Positions 8,987 to 35,573 of a DNA stretch of 36,507 bases are shown piece by piece. Origin of the DNA: a virus (Duplodnaviria; Heunggongvirae; Uroviricota; Caudoviricetes); the IMG/VR virus record IMGVR_UViG_2563366882_000002, one strand, 5' to 3'. How positions within the stretch are numbered: the first letter of the stretch is position 1; each line of letters opens with the position of its first letter. The notes under the pieces are model-generated. The model saw nothing but the letters and a program-made list of their open reading frames with translations, was not told where the DNA came from and made no database searches. The position numbers were made by a program, and so were the translations under genes.

Positions 8987-9727
8987 TCAGTTTTCTTTGA
9001 ATTTTTCACTTAATCGTTTCGTCAATACTTCGACAGATTCTTTGCGACCGGAGAACAAGTCATTGACGACGTACTCCATAATCTCAAAAGCATCCTCAAT
9101 GTCTTTGACTTTTACTTCATCGTAGGTATGGCTTCCGGCATTTCCTAAAAATTTAATTGCCATAAGAGGTCTTGAAAACGATCCGTATAATTCAGGTAGC
9201 ATCCCTAAACGGTGGTGTAGAGTTATGCGTTTGCCATTATCATTACGTTCAGCTACATCCATAGCGGTTAGCATTCTTTCAACTGAAATTCGAATTAGGT
9301 TTGCTGCTGCGCCAGGCTGTATTAGGAAAATGGAAAATGAGGCTTCAAGCGGTTCGGTAATTTCTTCTGGGCATTTTTCAGGTATTTCGAAAGGATGCAG
9401 TGATGGGTAAAAGGTGAAAGGTCTGTGCCATTGATAGTACTCAATATCATTTCTTTCTTCATCCCAACCTTGTTCCCATCCACTCTTACCAGTACAGGCC
9501 ACAACTTCACCACATTGCATTCTTGAACAGCGGGCCATGCAACTGAAAATAGATGAATCCATTTCTAGTTCAAACCAATCTTCACTGCGGAATTTTCGGG
9601 TATCATGTGTGTCATACGAGACGAAACTTTCTTTAATGATCTGTAGGGTTTTCTGATTGCAGTTAGGGCAGGGCCACTCAACCTGCATATCGTGGAAAAA
9701 CGCACCAGAGAGCTTGTGCACAGTCAT
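8987..9727 (-). CDS. Zn-ribbon + DUF4145-like protein, candidate abortive-infection/defence gene
   Basis: 246 aa; CPNC...CMARCSRMQCGE cysteine cluster; C-terminal IKFLGNAGSH...helical region resembling DUF4145 (from memory); AT-rich; sits at the P2 tin/old position. Confidence 0.45.
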   Translation of the reverse strand: MTVHKLSGAFFHDMQVEWPCPNCNQKTLQIIKESFVSYDTHDTRKFRSEDWFELEMDSSIFSCMARCSRMQCGEVVACTGKSGWEQGWDEERNDIEYYQWHRPFTFYPSLHPFEIPEKCPEEITEPLEASFSIFLIQPGAAANLIRISVERMLTAMDVAERNDNGKRITLHHRLGMLPELYGSFSRPLMAIKFLGNAGSHTYDEVKVKDIEDAFEIMEYVVNDLFSGRKESVEVLTKRLSEKFKEN

Positions 9728-9997
9728 TCTTTGTGTTCCTCATTTTTATGATTGGTAGGGATTGTATCTTCATACACGATTACAGTTGCATTAAAGATAA
9801 GCCATAGCAAGCTACTGGAAAAGAGACGAAACAGTTGGGCATATCAGATGTTTTTTCTTAAGGTAAGTTGTTGTGCATGCCTATACTGCATGAGATTGCA
9901 TGATCGTTTGAGGATCGTTATTGCTAAGGCCCACCAGAACTGGCGGGCTTTTGCGTAGAGCATGCAGGTGCATGAAAACAACTACATAAAGCGGGCA

Positions 9998-10016
9998 GGC
10001 GTGGCGGGGATACGAG
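9998..10016. other. candidate cos cohesive-end site (GGCGTGGCGGGGATACGAG)
   Basis: first 13 nt match my recollection of the 186/P2 19-nt cohesive end; located where P2 cos lies in the prophage map. Confidence 0.4.
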
Positions 10017-10168
10017 CGCGCGCTAAGTCATATAAGAGTTATATATTGATTTGATTGCTGGACATGCATACAGTATCGCTCTATCATCTAATAAATCTTA
10101 GAGTATTTGACAATGTTTGGATAAAATGGAACCTAACTTATTCATAATCCGCTAAACAGGGATGTCAG

Positions 10169-11083
10169 ATGCCATACCAATTGGTAGAGCTTAGCCCCGT
10201 AGCTAACGATCTTGAACAGTTAGGAACCAAAGAGAAGTTTTGGTTCTATTTCTCCGATGACACTGTAAATTTGCAGTTGTTTAAGTACTCTAGGCCAGGT
10301 ACTGGCGAGCATTGGTCTGAAAAGTGTGCTGCTGAGTTATGTCATTTGCTTAACATTCCACATGCTAGCTATGATTTGGCGCGATACAATGGTCGATTCG
10401 GTGTGGTGACTCAGAATATCATTCCATCTGGTTTCCGGATGGTAATGGGAAATGAAGTGCTTCACAGTTCGACATTCGATTATCCTGGGCCTTTACAAGC
10501 CGGGGAAAAGCCGGTAAGGGTCAGAGAACACACTGTCACAAGGGTATTGGGTTGTTTGGATAGGGAATCTATCAAGCCTCCTCCGAGTGTATATGATCTA
10601 ACCGGACTAAATGCAGCAGATGTATTTTGTGGATATTTGATGCTCGATGCACTTGTGAGTAATCAAGATCGCCATCATGAAAATTGGGCGATCATGCTTA
10701 ACAATGAAACTGGTGAGCAGTTTTTGTGTCCAACATACGATCATGCCGCTAGTTTAGGAAGGGAGATGTTAGATGATGAGCGTAACGAACGGCTTAATAC
10801 TAAAGATAAAAATCGACAAATCCCATGTTTTGTAAGAAAAGCTCGCTCTGAGCTATTCAAAGCAAAAACTGATAAAAAGCCCTTGCTGACCGTTGAAGCA
10901 TTTCAACATGCAGTTGAAGGGAGAGTTGCCGCTCGCGACCATTGGTTAGGTAAGTTGAGCGTTTTAACAGAAGATTCCATTACAGATGTGTTTAACCAAG
11001 TGCCTTCATCGTGTATATCCGACAGTGCACGTAGATTTGCAACGTTAATGGTAATGGAAAATCGCAGAAGGTTACTAGAATGA
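10169..11083 (+). CDS. HipA-like Ser/Thr kinase (HipA_C-only, HipT-like short form)
   Basis: 304 aa; GTKEKFW, LVSNQDRHHENWAI and CPTYDHAASLG motifs in HipA order and spacing; AT-rich. Confidence 0.6.
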   Translation: MPYQLVELSPVANDLEQLGTKEKFWFYFSDDTVNLQLFKYSRPGTGEHWSEKCAAELCHLLNIPHASYDLARYNGRFGVVTQNIIPSGFRMVMGNEVLHSSTFDYPGPLQAGEKPVRVREHTVTRVLGCLDRESIKPPPSVYDLTGLNAADVFCGYLMLDALVSNQDRHHENWAIMLNNETGEQFLCPTYDHAASLGREMLDDERNERLNTKDKNRQIPCFVRKARSELFKAKTDKKPLLTVEAFQHAVEGRVAARDHWLGKLSVLTEDSITDVFNQVPSSCISDSARRFATLMVMENRRRLLE

Positions 11084-11820
11084 CTAATACAAACTCCGTT
11101 TACGTCGCATGGCAGGCACCAGATACCAGAGACTGGCATGTTGTTGGTAACTTGCAAGAGCGCAAATCGGGGTATGTTTTCAGGTATACCAAAGGTGCTC
11201 TTAAATCTACTAAATTTACAAAGTTTAGCGGCATGAGTGATGTTCGTGAAACTTATGTTTCGGAAGAATTGTTTCCTCTTTTTAAAAATCGCCTTTTATC
11301 ACCGAGACGTCCAGAGTATCCGAGTTTCATTAAATGGCTTGGATTTGAAGAAGATAAGGTAAATCCTATCGATATTCTTGCTCGCTCGGGAGGCTTACGA
11401 AGCACTGATCAGCTGCAGATTTTCAAAAAAATTGATGTTGATTCTGATGGTAACTTTGAGCATTTTTTCTTCTTACATGGACTTGGTTACTTAAATAGCT
11501 TAGCTAATGCTCGTGTATCTGAATTGAAACCGGGGCAAATTTTGCGTCTTTGCTTGGATCTTCAAAATGAATACGATGGGGATGCTGTTGTCGTTCGTGC
11601 AGATAAACCAGCTGAAATCGTTGGTTACTGCCCTAGGTATTTAAGTAATGATATCAAGAAGATGTTATTGGATGATCCAAAATCAATCACTTTAACGGTC
11701 GAAAAGATTAGCGATGATGCTCCTCATAACTATCGGTTATTATGTAAATTATCAGGAGTACTAAGCCAAGCCTGTCAATCGACGCTGATTCCTCAGGATG
11801 AGTTTGAACCTATTGAGTAA
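11080..11820 (+). CDS. HIRAN-domain protein, partner of the HipA-like kinase
   Basis: 246 aa; ATGA start/stop overlap with the kinase gene; C-terminal GLGYLNS...LRLCLDLQNEYDGDAVVVRADKPAEIVGYCPRYL resembles HIRAN. Confidence 0.5.
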   Translation: MTNTNSVYVAWQAPDTRDWHVVGNLQERKSGYVFRYTKGALKSTKFTKFSGMSDVRETYVSEELFPLFKNRLLSPRRPEYPSFIKWLGFEEDKVNPIDILARSGGLRSTDQLQIFKKIDVDSDGNFEHFFFLHGLGYLNSLANARVSELKPGQILRLCLDLQNEYDGDAVVVRADKPAEIVGYCPRYLSNDIKKMLLDDPKSITLTVEKISDDAPHNYRLLCKLSGVLSQACQSTLIPQDEFEPIE

Positions 11821-11826
11821 ATGAAG

Positions 11827-11850
11827 AAAAGCCACCAAACGGTGGCTTTT
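11827..11850. terminator. bidirectional Rho-independent terminator (aaaagccacc-aaac-ggtggctttt)
   Basis: perfect 10-bp stem, 4-nt loop, A-run before and T-run after; between convergent 3' ends. Confidence 0.65.
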
Positions 11851-11854
11851 CTTA

Positions 11855-12895
11855 TTATGGGACTATATCTAGCGAGTAGGTATTAAACTGTATCGCCTCC
11901 TTGCCAAGCCAATCATTCATCTCCTGTAATCGCTTTTGTAGTGGCATTAGCTCATTTCGGACGAATACACGGCTTGCCTTTTCCACATCCCCAAACCCCC
12001 CAACATTATTCGGCATAATCCCCATCATTTGCGGCGGCACGCGGTGCGCTGCCATCATGTCATCCCGACTCACGTTCTTGATGTTAAGAAATTCATCCTT
12101 CGCCGCGACTTCTGACAATGGGATGATCTGAAGCCCGTCTTTTTTGCCGTTAGGTGAGTACATAAACAGGTTGCGGAAGTTGCCTGGACCTTTGGCGCTT
12201 TTCATCGCGTTGCGGAGGTTGTTCACATCCTCCTGATTCTGCGCGGCATCGGTCATGTACATGATGAAGCCTGCATGGCTGCCGTTGATGTAATACTTAC
12301 GGCGGAACAACGTGGCGGACTCGTTGAGCAGGGCTGACGGAATGGCAGAAAGATAACCGGGCAGGCCGTAGATCTCTTGGTTGATATCCGGTTCCATCAG
12401 ATGAAAGATGCTGCCTTTCGTGAACTGATACGGCTGCGTAGTCATGCCGTATTGCACAAACCAGTAGGTATCCAGGTCTAACCCGCGTCGGGTGTATTTT
12501 GCCAGCGCAGGTTCAAGGGCGATAACTTCACCGAAGCGGTTCGTGCGTTTCTCCAGGTAGGCGTTACCAAATACCAGATAGTCCTGCACAAAACGTGAAA
12601 AAGCCTGCTGGCTGAGCAGCGGGTGAGGGATATAGGTGCTGGTCAGAATGTTGCACTTTACTGCAATCGGTGAGCTGTGGTGTACGGCGGCGCGGAATGT
12701 TCGCGCCAGGCCGTCGAAACTCACAGGCGGCTCATACCAGCGGTCCATCTGTACGCATTCCACATAGTCCAGCAGTTCGCGACGGTCCAGAACAGGAACG
12801 GGATCGCCGAAGCTGAATGCTTCGGCTGAAGTCTGGCTTTTATGCTGGATCTGATTCATCGCCGCTGCGCGGTTTTTCTTACTCTTTCCCATCAA
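11855..12895 (-). CDS. Q: portal protein (P2 gpQ-like)
   Basis: 346 aa vs P2 Q about 344; P2 synteny. Confidence 0.8.
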   Translation of the reverse strand: MMGKSKKNRAAAMNQIQHKSQTSAEAFSFGDPVPVLDRRELLDYVECVQMDRWYEPPVSFDGLARTFRAAVHHSSPIAVKCNILTSTYIPHPLLSQQAFSRFVQDYLVFGNAYLEKRTNRFGEVIALEPALAKYTRRGLDLDTYWFVQYGMTTQPYQFTKGSIFHLMEPDINQEIYGLPGYLSAIPSALLNESATLFRRKYYINGSHAGFIMYMTDAAQNQEDVNNLRNAMKSAKGPGNFRNLFMYSPNGKKDGLQIIPLSEVAAKDEFLNIKNVSRDDMMAAHRVPPQMMGIMPNNVGGFGDVEKASRVFVRNELMPLQKRLQEMNDWLGKEAIQFNTYSLDIVP

Positions 12896-14658
12896 AAAAT
12901 CTCCACAATATTGCTGGTATTGGCGGATTCGCCCTGCAGCGGTTCGTTAAACAGTGCGTGCATCGTTGCCCAGGCCAGATCGGCGTGGCTGGCTTCTTCG
13001 CTGCGGCTGGCTTCATAGGTTGGGCGGTTGCCGCTCGCGGTGGTGGCGCGACGGATTGCCATGAATGACTGCGCTATGTCGGTGTGTCCGGCGTCAAACT
13101 CCAGACGGCGGTGGCTGATAATGTCGTAGGCCTTGAGTACCAGGGCGTTTTTAACATTGGGGTTATAGACAAACTCCCGGACGGCTGGAAAAAACGCTTT
13201 CACGTTCTCGTAAACCCCGTGGCCGACACCTGTCGAGTCGATGCCGATGTAGGTCACGTTGTACTGCTCGGTCAGTTTTTTGATGGCGTCAGCCTGGGCG
13301 CGGAAGTCCATCCCACGCCACTGGTGACGCTCAAGAATGCGGAACTTACCACCAGGCACGGCTGGCGGTGCCACCACTACGCATCCGGCGCTGTCGCCGT
13401 TTTGCGTACCTTTTGCCGGGTCATAACCGATCCACACTTCGCGCCAGCCAAACGGGCGCAGAGCCAGTGCATGAAAGTCGGTCCAGACTTCCCAGCTGTC
13501 CACCATGCACGCCTGCAGCTCGCTGAGCGGGAACACGGACGCGAGATCGTCCACAAACTCGCACATCAGCAGGTTCTGGTATTCGTCCGGGCTGTACTCC
13601 ATGCGCAACTGGTCAAGGTCGAACAGGTTACAGCCGCCGCGCACCGCATCTTCCACGGTGACTATCTGGCGGTATTGCCCGTCTGCGCACAGCAGGCCGG
13701 GGGCCAGATTGCTGTGGGACAGGTCGATGTCCACCTTGTCGGCCTTGTTGCGCCCACGGTTGAACAGCGCACCGGACCAGAACGGATAAGCACTGTGTGT
13801 CAGGCTGGATGGCGTGGAAAAATAGGTTTGTCGCCATTTTTTGTGAATAGCCATACCGGAAGCCACTTTGCGCAGCTCCTGGAATTTCGGTATCCAGAAA
13901 TATTCATCCAGATACAGGTTGCCGTGATAACTCTGGGCCGTGCGGGCATTGGTGCCGAGGAAGTAAAGCGTGGCTCCGTTAGGAAGCACCATCGGATCGC
14001 CTTTCAGCTCCACCTCGACTTCTTTGGCGAAGTCTATGATGTACTGCTTAAAGACGTGAGCCTGTGCCTTACTGGCAGAAAGGAAAATCTGGTTACGTCC
14101 GGTAAGCAGGGCGTCAATCAGGGCTTCACGGGCAAAGTAAAAGGTCGCGCCGATCTGGCGTGACTTCAGCAGGTTGCGGATGCGGTTGGTTTTTCCGGCT
14201 TCCCACCAGTGGCGCTGGTAGTTGAACATGGAGGAATGGAAAATTTCTTCCAGCTTCTCAATCTGTTCATCGGTGAAAACATTCTTTTCCGGCTGACGGC
14301 GCGGGCCTTTGTTGCGGTTGGCGACGTTAGGGTTTAAGTCGGCTTCGTTACCGCCATTGTTAAACTTGCCGATCCGCGCGTGGCGCTCCGACTGGCGCGC
14401 CAGCAGGTCAATTTCTTTGAAATCTTTCCCTTCTTTGTGCTCCTTCATAATGAGCTGGCAGTAGCGTGCGGCGGTGGTGAGCTGCATCTGATCCAGCGGC
14501 CCATAGTCACCCCACTTGTCGCGTTTTTTCCAGCTGTGAACGGTTGCAACTTTCTCGCCCAGCATTTCAGCAATGCGGGCTACGCGGTATCCCTGAAAGT
14601 ACAGCAGCATGGCCTGCCGACGGGGATCGAGATCTGCGGGTGTCAGTGTGGTGTTCAT
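12892..14658 (-). CDS. P: terminase large subunit (P2 gpP-like)
   Basis: 588 aa vs P2 P about 590; overlaps Q start. Confidence 0.8.
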   Translation of the reverse strand: MNTTLTPADLDPRRQAMLLYFQGYRVARIAEMLGEKVATVHSWKKRDKWGDYGPLDQMQLTTAARYCQLIMKEHKEGKDFKEIDLLARQSERHARIGKFNNGGNEADLNPNVANRNKGPRRQPEKNVFTDEQIEKLEEIFHSSMFNYQRHWWEAGKTNRIRNLLKSRQIGATFYFAREALIDALLTGRNQIFLSASKAQAHVFKQYIIDFAKEVEVELKGDPMVLPNGATLYFLGTNARTAQSYHGNLYLDEYFWIPKFQELRKVASGMAIHKKWRQTYFSTPSSLTHSAYPFWSGALFNRGRNKADKVDIDLSHSNLAPGLLCADGQYRQIVTVEDAVRGGCNLFDLDQLRMEYSPDEYQNLLMCEFVDDLASVFPLSELQACMVDSWEVWTDFHALALRPFGWREVWIGYDPAKGTQNGDSAGCVVVAPPAVPGGKFRILERHQWRGMDFRAQADAIKKLTEQYNVTYIGIDSTGVGHGVYENVKAFFPAVREFVYNPNVKNALVLKAYDIISHRRLEFDAGHTDIAQSFMAIRRATTASGNRPTYEASRSEEASHADLAWATMHALFNEPLQGESANTSNIVEIF

Positions 14659-16712: not shown

Positions 16713-17363
16713 ATGAGCCTGAGTCCCGCACGGCAGCATCGCCTGCGCGTTCAGGCTGAACAGGCCGCCCGCGAGGGCGGCAGTGTTCGCCACGCATCGG
16801 GCTATGACCTGATGCTGCTGCAACTGGCGGAAGACCGCCGCCGTCTCAAGGGCGTTCAGTCCACGGTCAAAAAAGCGGAAATCAAGGTGGAGCTGCTGCC
16901 GAAGTACGCCGCCTGGGCAGAGGGTGTCCTGGCTGCCGGAGGCGCTCAACAGGATGACGTGCTGATGTACGTGATGCTGTGGCGCATTGATGCCGGAGAT
17001 TATGCCGGAGCGCTGGAGATCGGGCGTCATGCCCTGCGTCATGGCTGGGTGATGCCGCTGGGTAACCGCAACGTGCAGACCGTGCTGGCAGAGGAAATGG
17101 CAGACGCCGCGCAGAGCGCAATGCTTGCCGCCACCGGCTTTGATGCCGATCTGTTGCTGCAGACGCTGGAGCTGACAGACGGTCTGGATATGCCGGACCA
17201 GTCACGGGCGCGTCTGCATAAAGCGATTGGCGCTGTCCTGAGTGAAAGCAATCCGGCGTCCGCCCTTAATCATCTCAACCATGCGTTACAGCTCGATCCC
17301 CGCTGTGGCGTGAAAAAAGACAAACAGCAGCTGGAGCGCAGACTGCGCAATGACAGCCGCTGA
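16713..17363 (+). CDS. M: terminase small subunit (P2 gpM-like)
   Basis: 216 aa; synteny. Confidence 0.7.
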   Translation: MSLSPARQHRLRVQAEQAAREGGSVRHASGYDLMLLQLAEDRRRLKGVQSTVKKAEIKVELLPKYAAWAEGVLAAGGAQQDDVLMYVMLWRIDAGDYAGALEIGRHALRHGWVMPLGNRNVQTVLAEEMADAAQSAMLAATGFDADLLLQTLELTDGLDMPDQSRARLHKAIGAVLSESNPASALNHLNHALQLDPRCGVKKDKQQLERRLRNDSR

Positions 17364-22506: not shown

Positions 22507-23104
22507 TCTGCTGCCACCGGGTTCAACTTCACTGGAGCGCCGACTGGCGCAAACCTGTAGCGGGATTTCTGATCTGCAGGTGCCGCTGCGTGACTTGTGG
22601 AGTCCGGCTACCTGTCCGGTCAGCTTCCTGCCTTATCTCGCCTGGGCGTTCTCTGTGGATCGCTGGGACGAGGGCTGGACAGAAAGCGTCAAACGCCAGG
22701 TAGTGAAGGATGCTTTTTATATTCATCAGCATAAAGGAACCACCAGTGCCGTGCGGCGGGTGGTGGAACCGTTCGGATTCCTGATCCGCATTATTGAGTG
22801 GTGGCAGACCGGAGAAACACCGGGCACGTTTCGCCTGGATATCGGCGTGCAGGACCAGGGCATCACTGAAGATACCTATCTGGAACTTGAGCGGCTGATA
22901 AGCGATGCCAAACCATGTAGCCGTCACATGATCGGCATGTCCATCAATCTGCAGACCAGCGGTCCGCATTGGGTGGGGGCCGCCAGCTATCTTGGCGAAG
23001 AAATCACGATCTATCCGTATATCAACGAAACAATTATTTCTGGCGGCACCGCGCATGAAGGCGGGGCGGTCCATGTTATTGACACAATGAGAGTGAATCC
23101 ATGA
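22499..23104 (+). CDS. I: baseplate protein I
   Basis: 201 aa; synteny. Confidence 0.75.
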   Translation: MNSLLPPGSTSLERRLAQTCSGISDLQVPLRDLWSPATCPVSFLPYLAWAFSVDRWDEGWTESVKRQVVKDAFYIHQHKGTTSAVRRVVEPFGFLIRIIEWWQTGETPGTFRLDIGVQDQGITEDTYLELERLISDAKPCSRHMIGMSINLQTSGPHWVGAASYLGEEITIYPYINETIISGGTAHEGGAVHVIDTMRVNP

Positions 23105-24237
23105 GCACAAAATTTTATACCCTGCTGACGGATATTGGCGCGGCGAAACTTGCCAGCGCCGCCGCGCTCGGTGTGCCGCTAAAAATTACCCATATGGCGG
23201 TCGGCGATGGCGGCGGAGTATTGCCAACGCCAGACTCAAAGCAGACTGCACTGGTAAATGAGAAACGCCGGGCTGCGCTGAATATGCTCTATATCGACCC
23301 GCAGAACAGCAGCCAGATTATTGCCGAACAGGTGATCCCTGAAAACGAGGGCGGTTGGTGGATACGTGAAGTGGGCTTGTTTGATGAGTCCGGGGCATTG
23401 ATTGCCGTGGGCAACTGCCCGGAAAGCTATAAGCCGCAACTGGCTGAAGGTAGCGGGCGCACTCAGACCGTGCGCATGGTGCTGATTACCAGCAGCACGG
23501 ACAATATCACCCTGAAAATCGACCCTGCCGTAGTGCTGGCAACCCGCAAGTATGTGGATGACAAGGCACTGGAGCTGAAGGTGTACGCGGATGATCAGAT
23601 GGCAAAACATCTTGCCGCACCGGACCCGCATTCACAGTATGCACCCAAAGAAAGTCCGACGTTTACCGGGACACCCAAAGCGCCAACGCCAGCCGCAGGG
23701 AATAACACCACGCAGATTGCGACCACCGCGTTTGTTCAGGCGGCTCTGACGGCTCTTATTAATGGTGCGCCAGCCACGCTGGACACGCTGAAAGAAATAG
23801 CCGCAGCCATTAACAATGATCCGAAATTCAGTACCACCATTAACAATGCGCTGGCACTGAAAGCGCCGCTGTCGAGTCCGGCACTCACCGGAACGCCAAC
23901 CGCACCTACTGCGGCACAGTCGGTCAACAATACACAGATTGCCACCACGGCATTTGTGAAATCGGCGATTGCGGCAATGGTGGGTTCTGCACCTGCGGCA
24001 CTGGATACACTGAACGAACTGGCGGCAGCGCTGGGGAATGACCCGAACTTTGCCACGACAATGCTTAATGCGCTGGCAGGTAAACAACCGCTGGACAATA
24101 CGCTGACTAATTTGAGTGGAAAGGATGTAGCTGGTCTTCTCACATACCTTGGTTTGGGAGAAGCGGCAAAACGGGATGTGGGAACAGGGGAAAATCAGAT
24201 ACCGGATATGGCTTCTTTTGCCAGTGGTGATGCATGA
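23101..24237 (+). CDS. H: tail fibre protein H, constant part plus first 21 codons of the invertible segment, ending at an in-frame TGA
   Basis: 378-aa ORF with repeated NNTQIATTAFV tail-fibre-like motifs; P2 H position. Confidence 0.75.
   Translation: MSTKFYTLLTDIGAAKLASAAALGVPLKITHMAVGDGGGVLPTPDSKQTALVNEKRRAALNMLYIDPQNSSQIIAEQVIPENEGGWWIREVGLFDESGALIAVGNCPESYKPQLAEGSGRTQTVRMVLITSSTDNITLKIDPAVVLATRKYVDDKALELKVYADDQMAKHLAAPDPHSQYAPKESPTFTGTPKAPTPAAGNNTTQIATTAFVQAALTALINGAPATLDTLKEIAAAINNDPKFSTTINNALALKAPLSSPALTGTPTAPTAAQSVNNTQIATTAFVKSAIAAMVGSAPAALDTLNELAAALGNDPNFATTMLNALAGKQPLDNTLTNLSGKDVAGLLTYLGLGEAAKRDVGTGENQIPDMASFASGDA
24137..24162. other. left recombination site of invertible segment (gix/hix-like)
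   Basis: TTCTCACATACC-TT-GGTTTGGGAGAA, two 12-bp imperfectly inverted half-sites around a 2-bp core, resembling hixL. Confidence 0.55.
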
Positions 24238-24498
24238 ACGGGTTTTCCCAAAGGTCCTATACGGCAGTATGGTCGGGGGGCTGTTACGCGGAGATTATCG
24301 AAGCAAACGATGAGTTATCCAGTAACCATCCCATTTCCTACACTTGTGGACTGGGCCGTGCTAACTACAACTGGTGTTGGTGGTGTAATTGTAAGGGGTG
24401 TGCCGGACTTTGCTATGACCAGCAAATCACAATTATATACCAGTGTTAGCTGCGTATACAGAGCTGAAACAGTCAGATACGCAGTGTCGAGTTATTAG
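24238..24498 (+). other. in-frame continuation of H variable domain (Hv) beyond the opal stop
   Basis: same frame as H, 87 codons to TAG 24496..24498; translation aligns with the opposite-orientation Hv'. Confidence 0.45.
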
Positions 24499-24581
24499 GT
24501 TGCGTGCGGTGTTTGTGTATAACTTTGATTTGGTTCATTTAATCGAACAAAGATGTTTACTGTGCAGGTCTAAACGCTGAT

Positions 24582-24779
24582 ATGCCTGTTGACATTGTTG
24601 AGAAAAGTAAATCCTTGGACTGGGAATTATTAGACGGACAGCAGGTAGGGGGTAAAATTATCAGGTCATTTATAACTGGACCACCAGTAGGAAAAACTCG
24701 GATTACCGATGATGACGGGCGTCCTGCGAGGGCGGGTATGCATTTACCTACGCATGACGAGAATATCAAAATTGATTGA
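24582..24779 (+). CDS. small protein paired with Hv (possible fibre assembly/chaperone, U-like position)
   Basis: 65 aa; shares P.DIVE...II.SF..G.PV.K.R.IDDDGR with the minus-strand ORF at 25147..25335. Confidence 0.4.
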   Translation: MPVDIVEKSKSLDWELLDGQQVGGKIIRSFITGPPVGKTRITDDDGRPARAGMHLPTHDENIKID

Positions 24780-24877
24780 TGGGAGAAACAACTGCTAGTT
24801 AATATGACCAACACAGACATGGAAAGACTGCCATGCTCCGGGAAAGCGAATAAAGATCGTCTAGCAGTCGAGACACT

Positions 24878-25000
24878 GGCGGATCATGAGTTTAGGCTGG
24901 ATGATCTAGACACAGTGTAGCTGGTTGATTATTTCGGTCCCCGAGAGAATCGACGGGCTACGCCTTCGCCAACTAAGGCAAGCAAAACTCATGATCCGCC
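24878..25000. repeat. perfect 16-bp inverted repeat (ggcggatcatgagttt / aaactcatgatccgcc) around a 91-bp spacer
   Basis: exact reverse complements at 24878..24893 and 24985..25000, between the two convergent small ORFs. Confidence 0.6.
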
Positions 25001-25146
25001 GATTCCTCGCCTGTCAGTCCTCCTATTGCCTATTTACTCGAGCCATATTTTTTTTTCATGTATGTGTTAGCCTGATCAATTAGTATTAGTCTCTCCCATT
25101 AGGCAATTTTGATAAGCTCTGCATGCGTAAGTGACTGCATTTGCGC

Positions 25147-25335
25147 CTACTCAGCCCGCCCGTCATCATCGATCGTCCGGGATTTCCGTACTGGCAGACC
25201 ATCTTCAAATGAACTGATTATATTACGACCCTCCTCCTGTGCAGCTAATAAATCCTTGCACACTTCTTTACATATCTCAACAATGTCAGCAGGGAAGACA
25301 GTATTAATCCTTGCGATGTAAACATATTTAGTCAT
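25147..25335 (-). CDS. small protein paired with Hv' (paralog of 24582..24779)
   Basis: about 63 aa from MTKYVY; C-terminus ...RKSRTIDDDGRAE paralogous to the plus-strand small ORF. Confidence 0.4.
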   Translation of the reverse strand: MTKYVYIARINTVFPADIVEICKEVCKDLLAAQEEGRNIISSFEDGLPVRKSRTIDDDGRAE

Positions 25336-25439
25336 ATAAGAGAACCTGATTAAAGATACTCCCATACAGCCCTCGAACTGTAATTCATGGATCTTTCGTA
25401 TTTGATTATTGCTCTCCTGGAAGCGGAGCCAACAATGAT

Positions 25440-25727
25440 TTATATCTGGCATTTGGCGATCTTCACGAATTCCCCTACACCCCCTGCAAACATACCAGCC
25501 TCAGACGTTGTATGAGGCATGGCCCACTCCACTTGTGAAGGATTTGGGAATGTTACTGTGATAGTCACTGTATGGGTTGATGATGTCGGCGCAATCCCCC
25601 CCCGAATAATCTGCCCGATTGTACGTTTGTGAAATCCCGTCGATCCAAGACCACTGGCAAATGCCGCCATATCCGGAATTTGGTTTTGCCCGTTACCTAC
25701 ATTCCGTTTTGCCGCTTCTCCCAAACC
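25440..25727 (-). CDS. alternative tail-fibre C-terminal segment Hv', joined to H constant part after inversion
   Basis: encodes GLGEAAKRNVGNGQNQIPDMAAFASG... homologous to the current H end, open to stop at 25440. Confidence 0.5.
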   Translation of the reverse strand, partial: GLGEAAKRNVGNGQNQIPDMAAFASGLGSTGFHKRTIGQIIRGGIAPTSSTHTVTITVTFPNPSQVEWAMPHTTSEAGMFAGGVGEFVKIAKCQI

Positions 25728-25741
25728 AACGTTTATGAAAA
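25716..25741. other. right recombination site of invertible segment (gix/hix-like)
   Basis: TTCTCCCAAACC-AA-CGTTTATGAAAA; inner half-site identical (as inverted repeat) to that of the left site. Confidence 0.55.
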
Positions 25742-25796
25742 TGCAGAGATAATGGCTAACTGGCATCATCCCCGGTTTTTATTCAGGGGATTGATC

Positions 25797-26363
25797 ATGC
25801 TTATTGGCTATGTACGCGTGTCAACAAATGACCAGAACACCGATTTGCAACGTAATGCACTGAACTGCGCGGGATGTGAGCGGATTTTTGAGGACAAAAT
25901 CAGTGGTACTAAGTCCGACAGACCGGGGCTTAAAAAACTGCTCAGGACACTATCGGCAGGTGACACACTGGTTGTCTGGAAGCTGGACAGGTTGGGGCGC
26001 AGTATGCGGCATCTTGTTACTCTGATAGAAGAGTTGCGCCAGCGCGGCGTGAATTTCAGAAGTCTGACTGACAGTATTGATACCAGTACCCCAATGGGCC
26101 GTTTCTTTTTTCATGTCATGGGTGCCCTGGCTGAAATGGAACGCGAACTGATAGTTGAACGTACCAGGGCAGGGCTGGCTGCAGCTCGTGCTAAAGGCAG
26201 AGTAGGTGGACGCCGTCCTAAGTTGACTACCGAACAGTGGGCACAGATTGGACGTTTACTCGAGGCCGGAGAATCAAGACAGCGTATTGCACTGATTTTT
26301 GATGTGGGCGTTTCTACCATTTATAGAAAATTTCCGGCGAATGAGAACAATGAATCGCCCTGA
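25797..26363 (+). CDS. serine DNA invertase, Hin/Gin/Pin family
   Basis: 188 aa from MLIGYVRVSTNDQ (catalytic Ser motif); C-terminal HTH-like region; start after AGGGGA RBS. Confidence 0.85.
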   Translation: MLIGYVRVSTNDQNTDLQRNALNCAGCERIFEDKISGTKSDRPGLKKLLRTLSAGDTLVVWKLDRLGRSMRHLVTLIEELRQRGVNFRSLTDSIDTSTPMGRFFFHVMGALAEMERELIVERTRAGLAAARAKGRVGGRRPKLTTEQWAQIGRLLEAGESRQRIALIFDVGVSTIYRKFPANENNESP

Positions 26364-33887: not shown

Positions 33888-35573
33888 TTATCCTAATCCT
33901 GGCCATACCATGACGATGATTGTCCCTGCCAGCGTCAGCAGGACGTTGGCGATTGCATAGGTGCCCGCATAGCCCAGCGCCGGGATGTTACTGCGAGCTG
34001 TATCACTGATGATCTCCATTGCCGGCGCGCAGGTGCGTGCGCCCATCATTGCGCCGAACAACAGTGCGCGGTTCATTCGCAATACATAAGCACCGAACAA
34101 GAAACAGATAACCACTGGCACAAGACTGACAATCAATCCGGCAATCAACATCTGACCGCCAATCGCGCCCAGGCCGTTATTAATACCGCTACCGGCGCTC
34201 AGACCAACGCCTGCCATAAACACCATTAAGCCGAACTCTTTCACCATGCTTAATGCACCCTGCGGAATGTAACCGAAGGTCGGGTGGTTAGCGCGCATAA
34301 ATCCCAGCATAATTCCGGCGAATAACAACCCGGCAGCGTTCCCCATGCCGAAACTGAATGTGCTGAATTGGAAGGTGATCATCCCGATCATCAGCCCAAT
34401 AACAAAGAAGGCGCAGAATGCCAGCAAGTCAGTGACCTGGCTGTGAATCGAGATAAAGCCGATGCGATCGGCGATGGTTTTTACGCGACGGGCATCGCCG
34501 CTGACTTGTAAAACGTCACCTTTGTTAAGCACGACGTTGTCATCTATCGGCATCTCAATCTGGCTACGAATGACGCGGTTAAGGAAGCAACCGTGATCGG
34601 TCAACTTCAGTTGTGCGAGACGTTTGCCCACGGCGTTATGGTTTTTAACGACCACTTCTTCAGTGACGATACGCATGTCGAGAAGGTCACGATCGAAAAC
34701 TTCTTTGCCGTTACGGAAGCTGGGATCGAGTCGTGCGTGGGCGTCGGGATAGCCTACCAACGCTATTTCATCGCCCATTTGTAGCACAGCATCACCGTCT
34801 GGATTCGCCAGAATCCCGTTACGTCGAATACGTTCAATGTAGCAGCCAGTTTGTCGATAAATACCCAGTTCACGCAGATTTTTGCCGTCGGTCCAGGCCA
34901 CCAGCTCCGGGCCGACGCGGTAGGCGCGGATCACCGGTAAATAAACCTTACGGTTGGCATCAGTGTCCAGGCCACGTTCGCGGGCGATTTGCTGGGCGCT
35001 GGTCTGTAAGTCCTGATGCTGCAATTTCGGCAAGTAACGCGCACCAACAATCAAACTCACCAGACCGATTAAATAGGTTAAGGCATACCCGAGGCTCAGA
35101 TTATCCAGTGCCAGTGAGAGCTGCCTGCTTTCCATGCCGGAATGACGCAGTGTATCGCCAGCACCGACCAGAACCGGTGTCGACGTCATAGAGCCAGCTA
35201 ACATACCGGCCGTCAGGCCAATATCCCAGCCAAACAGCTTACCTAACCCTAAGGCGATCACCAGCGCACTGCCAACCATCACCAGTGCTAACATTAGGTA
35301 ATTTTTCCCATCGCGAAAAAAAATGGAAAAAAAGTTCGGTCCGGCTTCGACCCCGACGCAGAAAATAAACAGCATAAAGCCAAGATTAAGCGCGTCGGTG
35401 TTAATGCTGAAATGTTGTTGGCCTAATAACAGCGATACGACTAAAACGCCAATGGAATTACCCAGTTGGATCGAACCAAGTCGTAATTTCCCGAGACATA
35501 GCCCAAGCGCGAGGACCACAAATAATAACAGAATGTAATTCCCATTTAACAATTCGGCGACGTTTATATTCAC
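33888..35573 (-). CDS. ybjL: putative transporter YbjL
   Basis: 561 aa polytopic membrane protein; N-terminus and length recognised as E. coli YbjL; neighbours ybjM and grxA. Confidence 0.8.

Follow-up and report, generated by a model that had tools for sequence, protein, structure and literature searches.

A putative P2-family cos site between two separately assorting cargo bays of a 186/Fels-2-type prophage

Introduction

[quoted passage not shown] Members of the P2 family share a conserved cos core of 55 bp, which is credited to Ziermann & Calendar (1990) as cited in PMC5694545, PMC3931495 and PMC5247547. The region from gpA to gpQ was suggested to be a hotspot of genetic diversity by Odegrip et al. 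(2006), as cited in Rousset et al. (2022); the variable A-side locus with tin and old in P2 also goes back to Odegrip et al. (2006). The interval between cosL and Q was proposed to be a hotspot for foreign genes by Dodd & Egan (1996) and Nakayama (1999), both as cited in PMC5694545. Rousset et al. (2022) and de Sousa et al. (2026, NAR) describe a gpA-gpQ defence hotspot 'adjacent to the cos site' as well as a cos-adjacent hotspot in P4 satellites, which have nothing else in common with P2 apart from cos (Rousset et al. 2022), and both studies speculate that the cos ends promote exchange. In these surveys gpA-gpQ is treated as one hotspot, whereas the prophage described here carries cargo to the left as well as to the right of cos, and the two sides assort separately.

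The window, i.e. the whole stretch of 36,507 nucleotides that was analysed (IMG/VR record IMGVR_UViG_2563366882_000002), shares with P2 and 186 a GC-rich cos 19-mer of the pattern GGCG[A/T]GGCGGGGA...., a cos position between A-side accessory genes and the portal gene Q, and homologous terminase genes. However, the cos-Q gap of P2 and 186 is gene-free and measures 168–177 bp, while that of the window holds a 1.8-kb insert of two genes. As in the gpA-gpQ hotspot of other P2-like phages, variable accessory genes, including candidate defence genes, lie beside cos, and the right of the two cargo bays opens at the position behind CGCGCGC where the gop-beta locus of P4 also begins. Two further phages, SEN8 (Felsduovirus) and Cartapus (Elveevirus), whose cos sites are assigned by similarity only, possess the identical 19-mer with the CGCGCGC flank and carry cargo between cos and Q. 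SEN8 also has the left-bay gene (91% protein identity). In neither phage is the right-bay cargo related to that of the window: in SEN8 it consists of a hypothetical protein and an HNH endonuclease, and in Cartapus it is a distant DUF4145 protein (22% identity), the window having its DUF4145 gene in the opposite bay.

In phage lambda, cos comprises the nicking site cosN and the accessory sites cosB and cosQ, and staggered nicks generate 5′ cohesive ends. Recognition by lambda terminase needs asymmetric flanking sequence, and the same logic would apply to the cos of the window. The two sites have no sequence relationship, however; the lambda overhang is 12 nt as opposed to 19 nt, and with respect to the head genes the conserved recognition sequences of the two are found on opposite sides.

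Results and discussion

Prophage gene map

The window corresponds to an integrated prophage that belongs to the 186/Fels-2 type within the P2 family. It encodes an integrase (1–1131, − strand), a 186-type CI repressor (1449–2024, − strand), a Dam methylase (4884–5855), the replication endonuclease homologous to gpA (5852–8272, + strand; Pfam Phage_GPA, E = 3e-128), which is the conserved gene to the left of the accessory region, and a DinI/Tum-like gene (8553–8858). The type of CI repressor and the DinI/Tum-like gene suggest that the prophage may be induced through the SOS response. The right bay is bounded by the portal gene homologous to gpQ (11855–12895, − strand; Pfam Phage_portal), next to which lies the terminase large subunit homologous to gpP (12892–14658, − strand; Pfam Terminase_5, Terminase_6N and Terminase_6C). 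After P come the scaffold gene O, the capsid gene N, the small terminase gene M (gpM homologue; 16713–17363, + strand; Pfam Phage_term_smal, E = 2e-40) and L. Q, P, O, N, M and L, which are the genes for packaging and head formation that were checked, are all full-length ORFs with strong Pfam matches, and the cognate terminase genes, gpP and gpM, are encoded by the prophage itself. The cos site is located between gpA and Q, which is the order also found in P2, 186 and SEN8.

The GC content is ~40–45% across ~8100–11900, the A-to-Q interval, compared with 50–60% in the core genes. A first-pass annotation of the window had placed cos within an accessory region, which agrees with this low-GC interval, where the DUF4145 gene lies to the left of cos and the HipA-like/HIRAN genes to its right. 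As the window starts exactly at the integrase stop codon, attL lies outside it; no tRNA or tmRNA gene was found within the window.

Cohesive-end sequence

The 19-nt cohesive-end sequence is assigned to 9998–10016 (+ strand) by homology to 186, P2 and SEN8, from which the probable nick positions are also derived. It reads GGCGTGGCGGGGATACGAG and occurs once in the window, while its 13-nt stem (GGCGWGGCGGGGA) has one perfect match and three further matches with two mismatches each in the window; matches with two mismatches also arise in shuffles. The first-pass annotation had proposed a putative cos here because of a likeness to the cohesive end of 186 and P2, with the first 13 nucleotides given as identical to those of 186, and had named an alignment with the two phages as a check. 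The alignment bears this out: the 19-mer is identical to P2 cosL (GGCGAGGCGGGGAAAGCAC; NC_001895, 1–19) at 14/19 positions and to 186 cos (GGCGTGGCGGGGAAAGCAT; NC_001317, 1–19) at 15/19, with the first 13 all the same, and the surrounding core from −30 to +25 matches 186 at 43/56 positions and P2 at 42/56. Its homology to experimentally defined cos sites of the P2 family, its position between gpA and Q and the cognate terminase genes identify the sequence as a cos site.

The first 19 bases of the record of the Salmonella phage SEN8, labelled 'putative cos site', agree with the window at 19/19 positions, and the genome announcement of this phage gives the exact string (PMC5427200), although the site was assigned during annotation, without end sequencing (PMC5427200). 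The same 19-mer lies within the 'putative cos site' feature of the Escherichia phage Cartapus, and a one-base variant (GGCGTGGCGGGGAGACGAG) has been assigned in the Stenotrophomonas phage Smp131 by analogy to P2 (PMC3931495). The final six bases of the window 19-mer are TACGAG, compared with AAGCAC/AAGCAT in the mapped P2/186 ends, so that the point at which the overhang ends on its 3′ side is extrapolated.

Conserved cos block and its elements

Exact scans with the 19-mer covered at least 120 IMG/VR contigs, at least 120 metagenome contigs and 54 species-representative genome loci. Contigs were picked through the 19-mer alone, after which the identity of their flanks to the window was scored per base. 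In the viral and the metagenome contigs (at least 120 each), identity to the window is 0.7–1.0 from −125 to +25, while outside the block it is ~0.25–0.3, which is the random level, on both flanks. Among the matches listed, the block edges are sharp to 1–3 bases and the metagenome set, which is independent, replicates the viral set. With such conservation of the adjoining sequence, the likeness of the 19-mer to cos goes well beyond coincidence. The drop in identity at both edges thus delimits a cos block of 151 bp (9873–10023, + strand), which is strongly asymmetric, as it comprises 125 bp to the left of the cut on the gene-A side, the 19-mer, and only 7 bp (CGCGCGC) past the cohesive end on the Q side.

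Of the 54 species-representative loci, ~50 contain a recognisable block, mostly from Enterobacterales, plus Chitinimonas. The Pasteurella testudinis locus has CGCGCGG on the right and weak identity on the left, while 3–4 loci from MAGs that carry the 19-mer without the block are probably chance matches. In two assemblies of Chitinimonas (Betaproteobacteria), far outside Enterobacterales, the exact 19-mer occurs several times per genome; these blocks have diverged to ~60% identity, with the CGCGCGC flank and the TGCAT repeats kept.

The circular junctions of P2, 186, P4 and SEN8 were rebuilt and aligned with window positions 9848–10057, and all five sequences display one common architecture. 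It begins on the left with a TGCAT repeat cluster, ~95–125 bp from the cut, and continues with a GTGCAT-AAAAC element near position −30; AAAGCGGGCA then directly precedes the cut and the 19-mer, which is immediately followed by GCGCGC. The left half of the cos core (9961–9997, + strand; CATGCAGGTGCATGAAAAC ... AAAGCGGGCA) aligns with GGTGCATTAAAACC...GAAGCGGGCG in P2 and with CTGCATTAAAACC...AAAGTGGGCA in 186. The core from −30 to +25 corresponds to the 55-bp core of Ziermann & Calendar.

Three direct TGCATG repeats are present at 9874–9902 (+ strand; starts at 9874, 9887 and 9897), and the TGCAT copies align in P2, 186, P4 and SEN8. Five of the 20 TGCATG copies in the window fall within 9874–9974 (Poisson P ~4e-9), and the repeats at 9874–9902 are presumed to be the recognition repeats of the terminase (gpM/gpP). 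Across the window as a whole TGCATG is scarce, with 20 copies observed versus 45 ± 6 expected from dinucleotide-preserving shuffles; a motif for terminase recognition may be avoided outside the block, and codon bias may also account for the scarcity.

A stable hairpin followed by TTTTG is found upstream of the cut site at 9926–9953 (+ strand; −18 kcal/mol, z = −3.1) and looks like a terminator on the + strand. Comparable inverted repeats were seen in 186, P4 and SEN8, while the alignment contained no obvious counterpart in the cos region of P2. Covariation at 9929–9948 gives no convincing support for a selected hairpin structure, and none is claimed: most changes affect one side of a pair or break it, few are compensatory, and conservation is mainly of the sequence. 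The pair 9933:9944 is an A.C mismatch in the window versus G-C in the population consensus.

Two GATC sites (9902–9905 and 9913–9916), 11 bp apart, are conserved in the cos block of this lineage and absent from the cos blocks of P2, 186 and P4. The window phage encodes the Dam methylase mentioned above; GATC is not enriched window-wide (142 observed versus 126 ± 11 expected), and a link to methylation-dependent packaging is pure speculation.

Cargo on either side of cos

The left bay opens at a distance of ~126 bp from the cut, and the right bay 8 bp past the cohesive end. The left cargo bay (8933–9872, − strand), which would form the right end of the virion genome, contains the Zn-ribbon/DUF4145 gene (8987–9727, − strand; Pfam DUF4145; weak PADLOC match to PD-T7-4, E = 1.6e-5) together with its upstream region; a sigma-70 scan detected no consensus promoter for this gene. 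The encoded protein has N-terminal Cys pairs, is Zn-ribbon-like in this respect, and is 91% identical to gp49 of SEN8.

The right cargo bay (10024–11895, + strand), which would form the left end of the virion genome, contains a promoter-like site identified by promoter scan (10059–10087, + strand), the gene for a small HipA-like kinase (10169–11083, + strand; PADLOC PDC-M03A, E = 2e-122; Pfam HipA_C below the curated cut-off) and a gene for a HipS-like/HIRAN protein (11080–11820, + strand; PADLOC PDC-M03B, E = 3e-93; Pfam HIRAN). The two genes overlap. As a pair they are strong matches to PDC-M03A/B, a candidate system in PADLOC, and they agree in gene order and domains with the hipIN modules described by Gerdes et al. 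(2021), in which HIRAN is proposed to be a sensor of phage DNA ends.

Separate assortment of the two bays

When positions 8280–11860 were used as a query against 5426 complete E. coli genomes, no single-place match covering at least 80% of the query length was found. The relatives in E. coli fall into group 1, which matches 8280–10024 at 99.8–99.9% identity and has DinI, DUF4145 and cos in common with the window, group 2, which matches 9873–11860 at ~99.1% and has cos, HipA-like/HIRAN and Q in common, and group 3, which contains the right half plus the DinI region, without the DUF4145 gene. The DUF4145 gene is present in 29 of the 5426 complete genomes and the HipA-like/HIRAN pair in 21, while the left and right cargo of the window stand side by side in none of the 5426, nor do they occur together in any of 240 contigs among the matches listed.

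In the BLAST alignments, homology to relatives sharing the left side ends at 10023/10026 and resumes at 11896–11904, while homology to relatives sharing the right side is lost by 8605–8932 on the left and resumes at 9872–9875. The partners of each cargo differ from strain to strain: the DUF4145 gene lies opposite IS1 and DUF6953 in strain KL53 and opposite a TIR protein in strain SCU-115, and the HipA-like/HIRAN pair lies opposite SIR2 and an ATPase in strain 89-3156 and opposite a 141-aa protein in strain LR-71-1. Gene content between gpA and gpQ is variable among the relatives, and KL53, 89-3156, LR-71-1, SCU-115, SEN8 and Cartapus all differ. SCU-115 (NZ_CP054368.1) has both cargoes in two separate P2-like prophages, at ~1.389 Mb and ~4.306 Mb, of which the one with the right cargo of the window carries a different left cargo.

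Flanks of 600 bp were typed by k-mer similarity at 188 cos-anchored loci among the matches listed. The left flanks fell into 77 types and the right flanks into 130, and these types were joined in 163 combinations. Among these 188 loci, the probability that the right type is the same when the left is the same was 0.05, against a baseline of 0.004, and none of them had both flank types in common with the window. The first-pass annotation had claimed that cos separates two cargo loci and that these were probably acquired independently. Independent acquisition is supported by relatives that share one side or the other, with homology breaks at the block edges (9872–9875 or 10023–10026), by the 29 and 21 genomes with one cargo, the lack of any complete E. 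coli genome with the two adjacent, and flank types that are nearly uncoupled. The two flanks are separate cargo bays with almost independent assortment, and since the cos block is the only conserved sequence in the gpA-gpQ hotspot, the hotspot is split into two bays.

Among the matches listed, 14 of 168 loci with this 19-mer had an empty cos-Q gap, which measured 154–180 bp and thus resembled that of P2 and 186. The other 154 (~92%) had cargo in the gap, whose length exceeded 500 bp and reached 3.5 kb, and in 151 of these 154 right bays the longest ORF was directed away from cos. The DinI-cos gap was minimal (~203 bp) in 46 of 139 loci, and the orientation of left-bay cargo was mixed (34 on the − strand and 37 on the + strand), again among the matches listed.

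Proposed packaging and virion ends

After induction, the terminase formed by gpP (12892–14658) and gpM (16713–17363) would recognise the block at 9873–10023, probably via the TGCATG repeats and the conserved core. Nearly all of this sequence is located on the gene-A side of the cut. If cleavage follows the pattern of P2 and 186, the terminase would nick the DNA twice at a distance of 19 nt, once in the top strand 5′ of G9998 and once in the bottom strand after G10016, leaving 19-nt 5′ overhangs of GGCGTGGCGGGGATACGAG. With nicks at 9998/10016, the linear genome would open with HipA-like/HIRAN and Q and close with A, DinI and DUF4145, so that by the P2/186 convention the virion order would be cos, HipA-like/HIRAN, Q ... 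A, DinI-like, DUF4145, cos. SEN8 has been deposited in exactly this order, with the DUF4145 gene last and an unrelated cargo before Q. The hairpin at 9926–9953 may halt rightward transcription ahead of the cut site. At the level of the population, the bays are exchanged independently, with the block serving as shared homology between otherwise unrelated flanks.

Among 294 contigs from the matches listed (120 viral, 120 metagenome and 54 genome loci), none ends exactly at 9998 or 10016. Four draft-genome contigs break 39–43 nt to the left of the 19-mer, which are probably not physical ends but assembly breaks at a cos core repeated between co-resident prophages. Three deposited records were set aside as evidence for the ends: that of phage Midge is cut arbitrarily inside a 186-type cos, that of Cartapus starts 32 nt before the cut, and that of SEN8 starts at the cut by annotation only.

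Alternative readings

The sequence at 9998–10016 is very probably the cohesive-end sequence, i.e. the cos, of an integrated Fels-2/186-like prophage of the P2 family (Peduoviridae), and the same high probability is given to the proposed mechanism with its two bays. It is unlikely that the 19-mer is a relic of cos in a defective prophage, or that the nicks are offset from the P2/186 positions so that the ends are not at 9998/10016. This reading could appeal to the 4–5 of 19 positions that are unlike the mapped P2 and 186 ends and to the literature, in which no end-mapping of this cos variant (...ATACGAG) was found. However, hundreds of contigs, from many genera, show little or no variation in the 19-mer and in the 7 bp to its right, from which ongoing selection is argued, the identical sequence is present in SEN8, an isolated plaque-forming phage, and the full-length genes from Q to L, with their strong Pfam matches, speak against a defective packaging apparatus. 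A block kept mainly for some other role, as the attachment or crossover site of a recombinase that inserts cargo or as a common regulatory region with terminator and promoters, with only an incidental likeness to cos, is very unlikely. The terminator-like hairpin inside the block, the coincidence of the cargo junctions with the block edges and the promoter-like site after the block would be in line with such a role, but the block aligns element by element with the cos regions of P2, 186 and P4, whose ends are annotated as cohesive, P4 and P2 share nothing else (Rousset et al. 2022), and neither in the window nor in the loci of its E. coli relatives do the bays come with a recombinase gene.

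That both cargo loci arrived as one block with cos merely inside it, which would make independent acquisition wrong, is extremely unlikely. Both loci have a similarly low GC content (~40–43%), and left and right types co-occur 12-fold above the baseline in the loci among the matches listed, which is also what clonal descent is expected to produce. Against this, the pair is together in 0 of 5426 E. coli genomes and 0 of 240 contigs among the matches listed, as opposed to 29 and 21 genomes with a single one, SCU-115 carries the two cargoes in different prophages, and SEN8 pairs the left cargo with a different right cargo. A joint arrival already conflicts with these data.

Relation to the published hotspot

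A cos site between swappable accessory slots is already described biology, as the A-cos, cosL-Q and gpA-gpQ hotspots have all been published, and beyond the framing of the cargo the result confirms what textbooks say about the P2 family. Splitting the gpA-gpQ hotspot at cos refines the published picture and is no new kind of system. The refinement bears on how the cargo is handled, as the DUF4145 gene and the HipA-like/HIRAN pair are two independently exchangeable modules rather than one operon-like island, which matters for cloning and testing them as defence systems and for counting 'systems' in the gpA-gpQ hotspot, where lumping both sides of cos inflates the count of distinct arrangements. 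The location of cos, moreover, would fix the ends of the virion genome.

The ~92% occupancy of the right bay and the outward direction of its longest ORF in 151 of 154 cases, among the matches listed, point to a directional rule of capture or selection, which is absent from the published description of a single hotspot. Together, the two-bay structure and this polarity would make the idea of Rousset et al. that cos ends promote exchange testable. It is conceivable, though rather doubtful, that the 151-bp cos block is more than a landmark and forms the actual crossover or joining point through which co-resident P2-like prophages, and perhaps P4 satellites too, swap their bays. This reading is compatible with breakpoints at the exact block edges, with the presence of both 'parental' prophages in SCU-115 and with the occupancy and polarity of the right bay. 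The two prophages of that strain can be regarded as 'parents' whose recombination within the cos block would yield the arrangement of the window.

Other features of the prophage

A serine invertase of the Hin/Gin type (Resolvase and HTH_7; 25629–26363) adjoins the tail-fibre genes (23000–25700), which suggests an invertible host-range segment; a search for inverted repeats near the invertase gave weak pairs only (21 nt with 76% complementarity and 18 nt with 83%). To the right of the last phage-like ORFs, the window contains a host-type transporter gene (Asp-Al_Ex and TrkA_C; 33888–35573, − strand).
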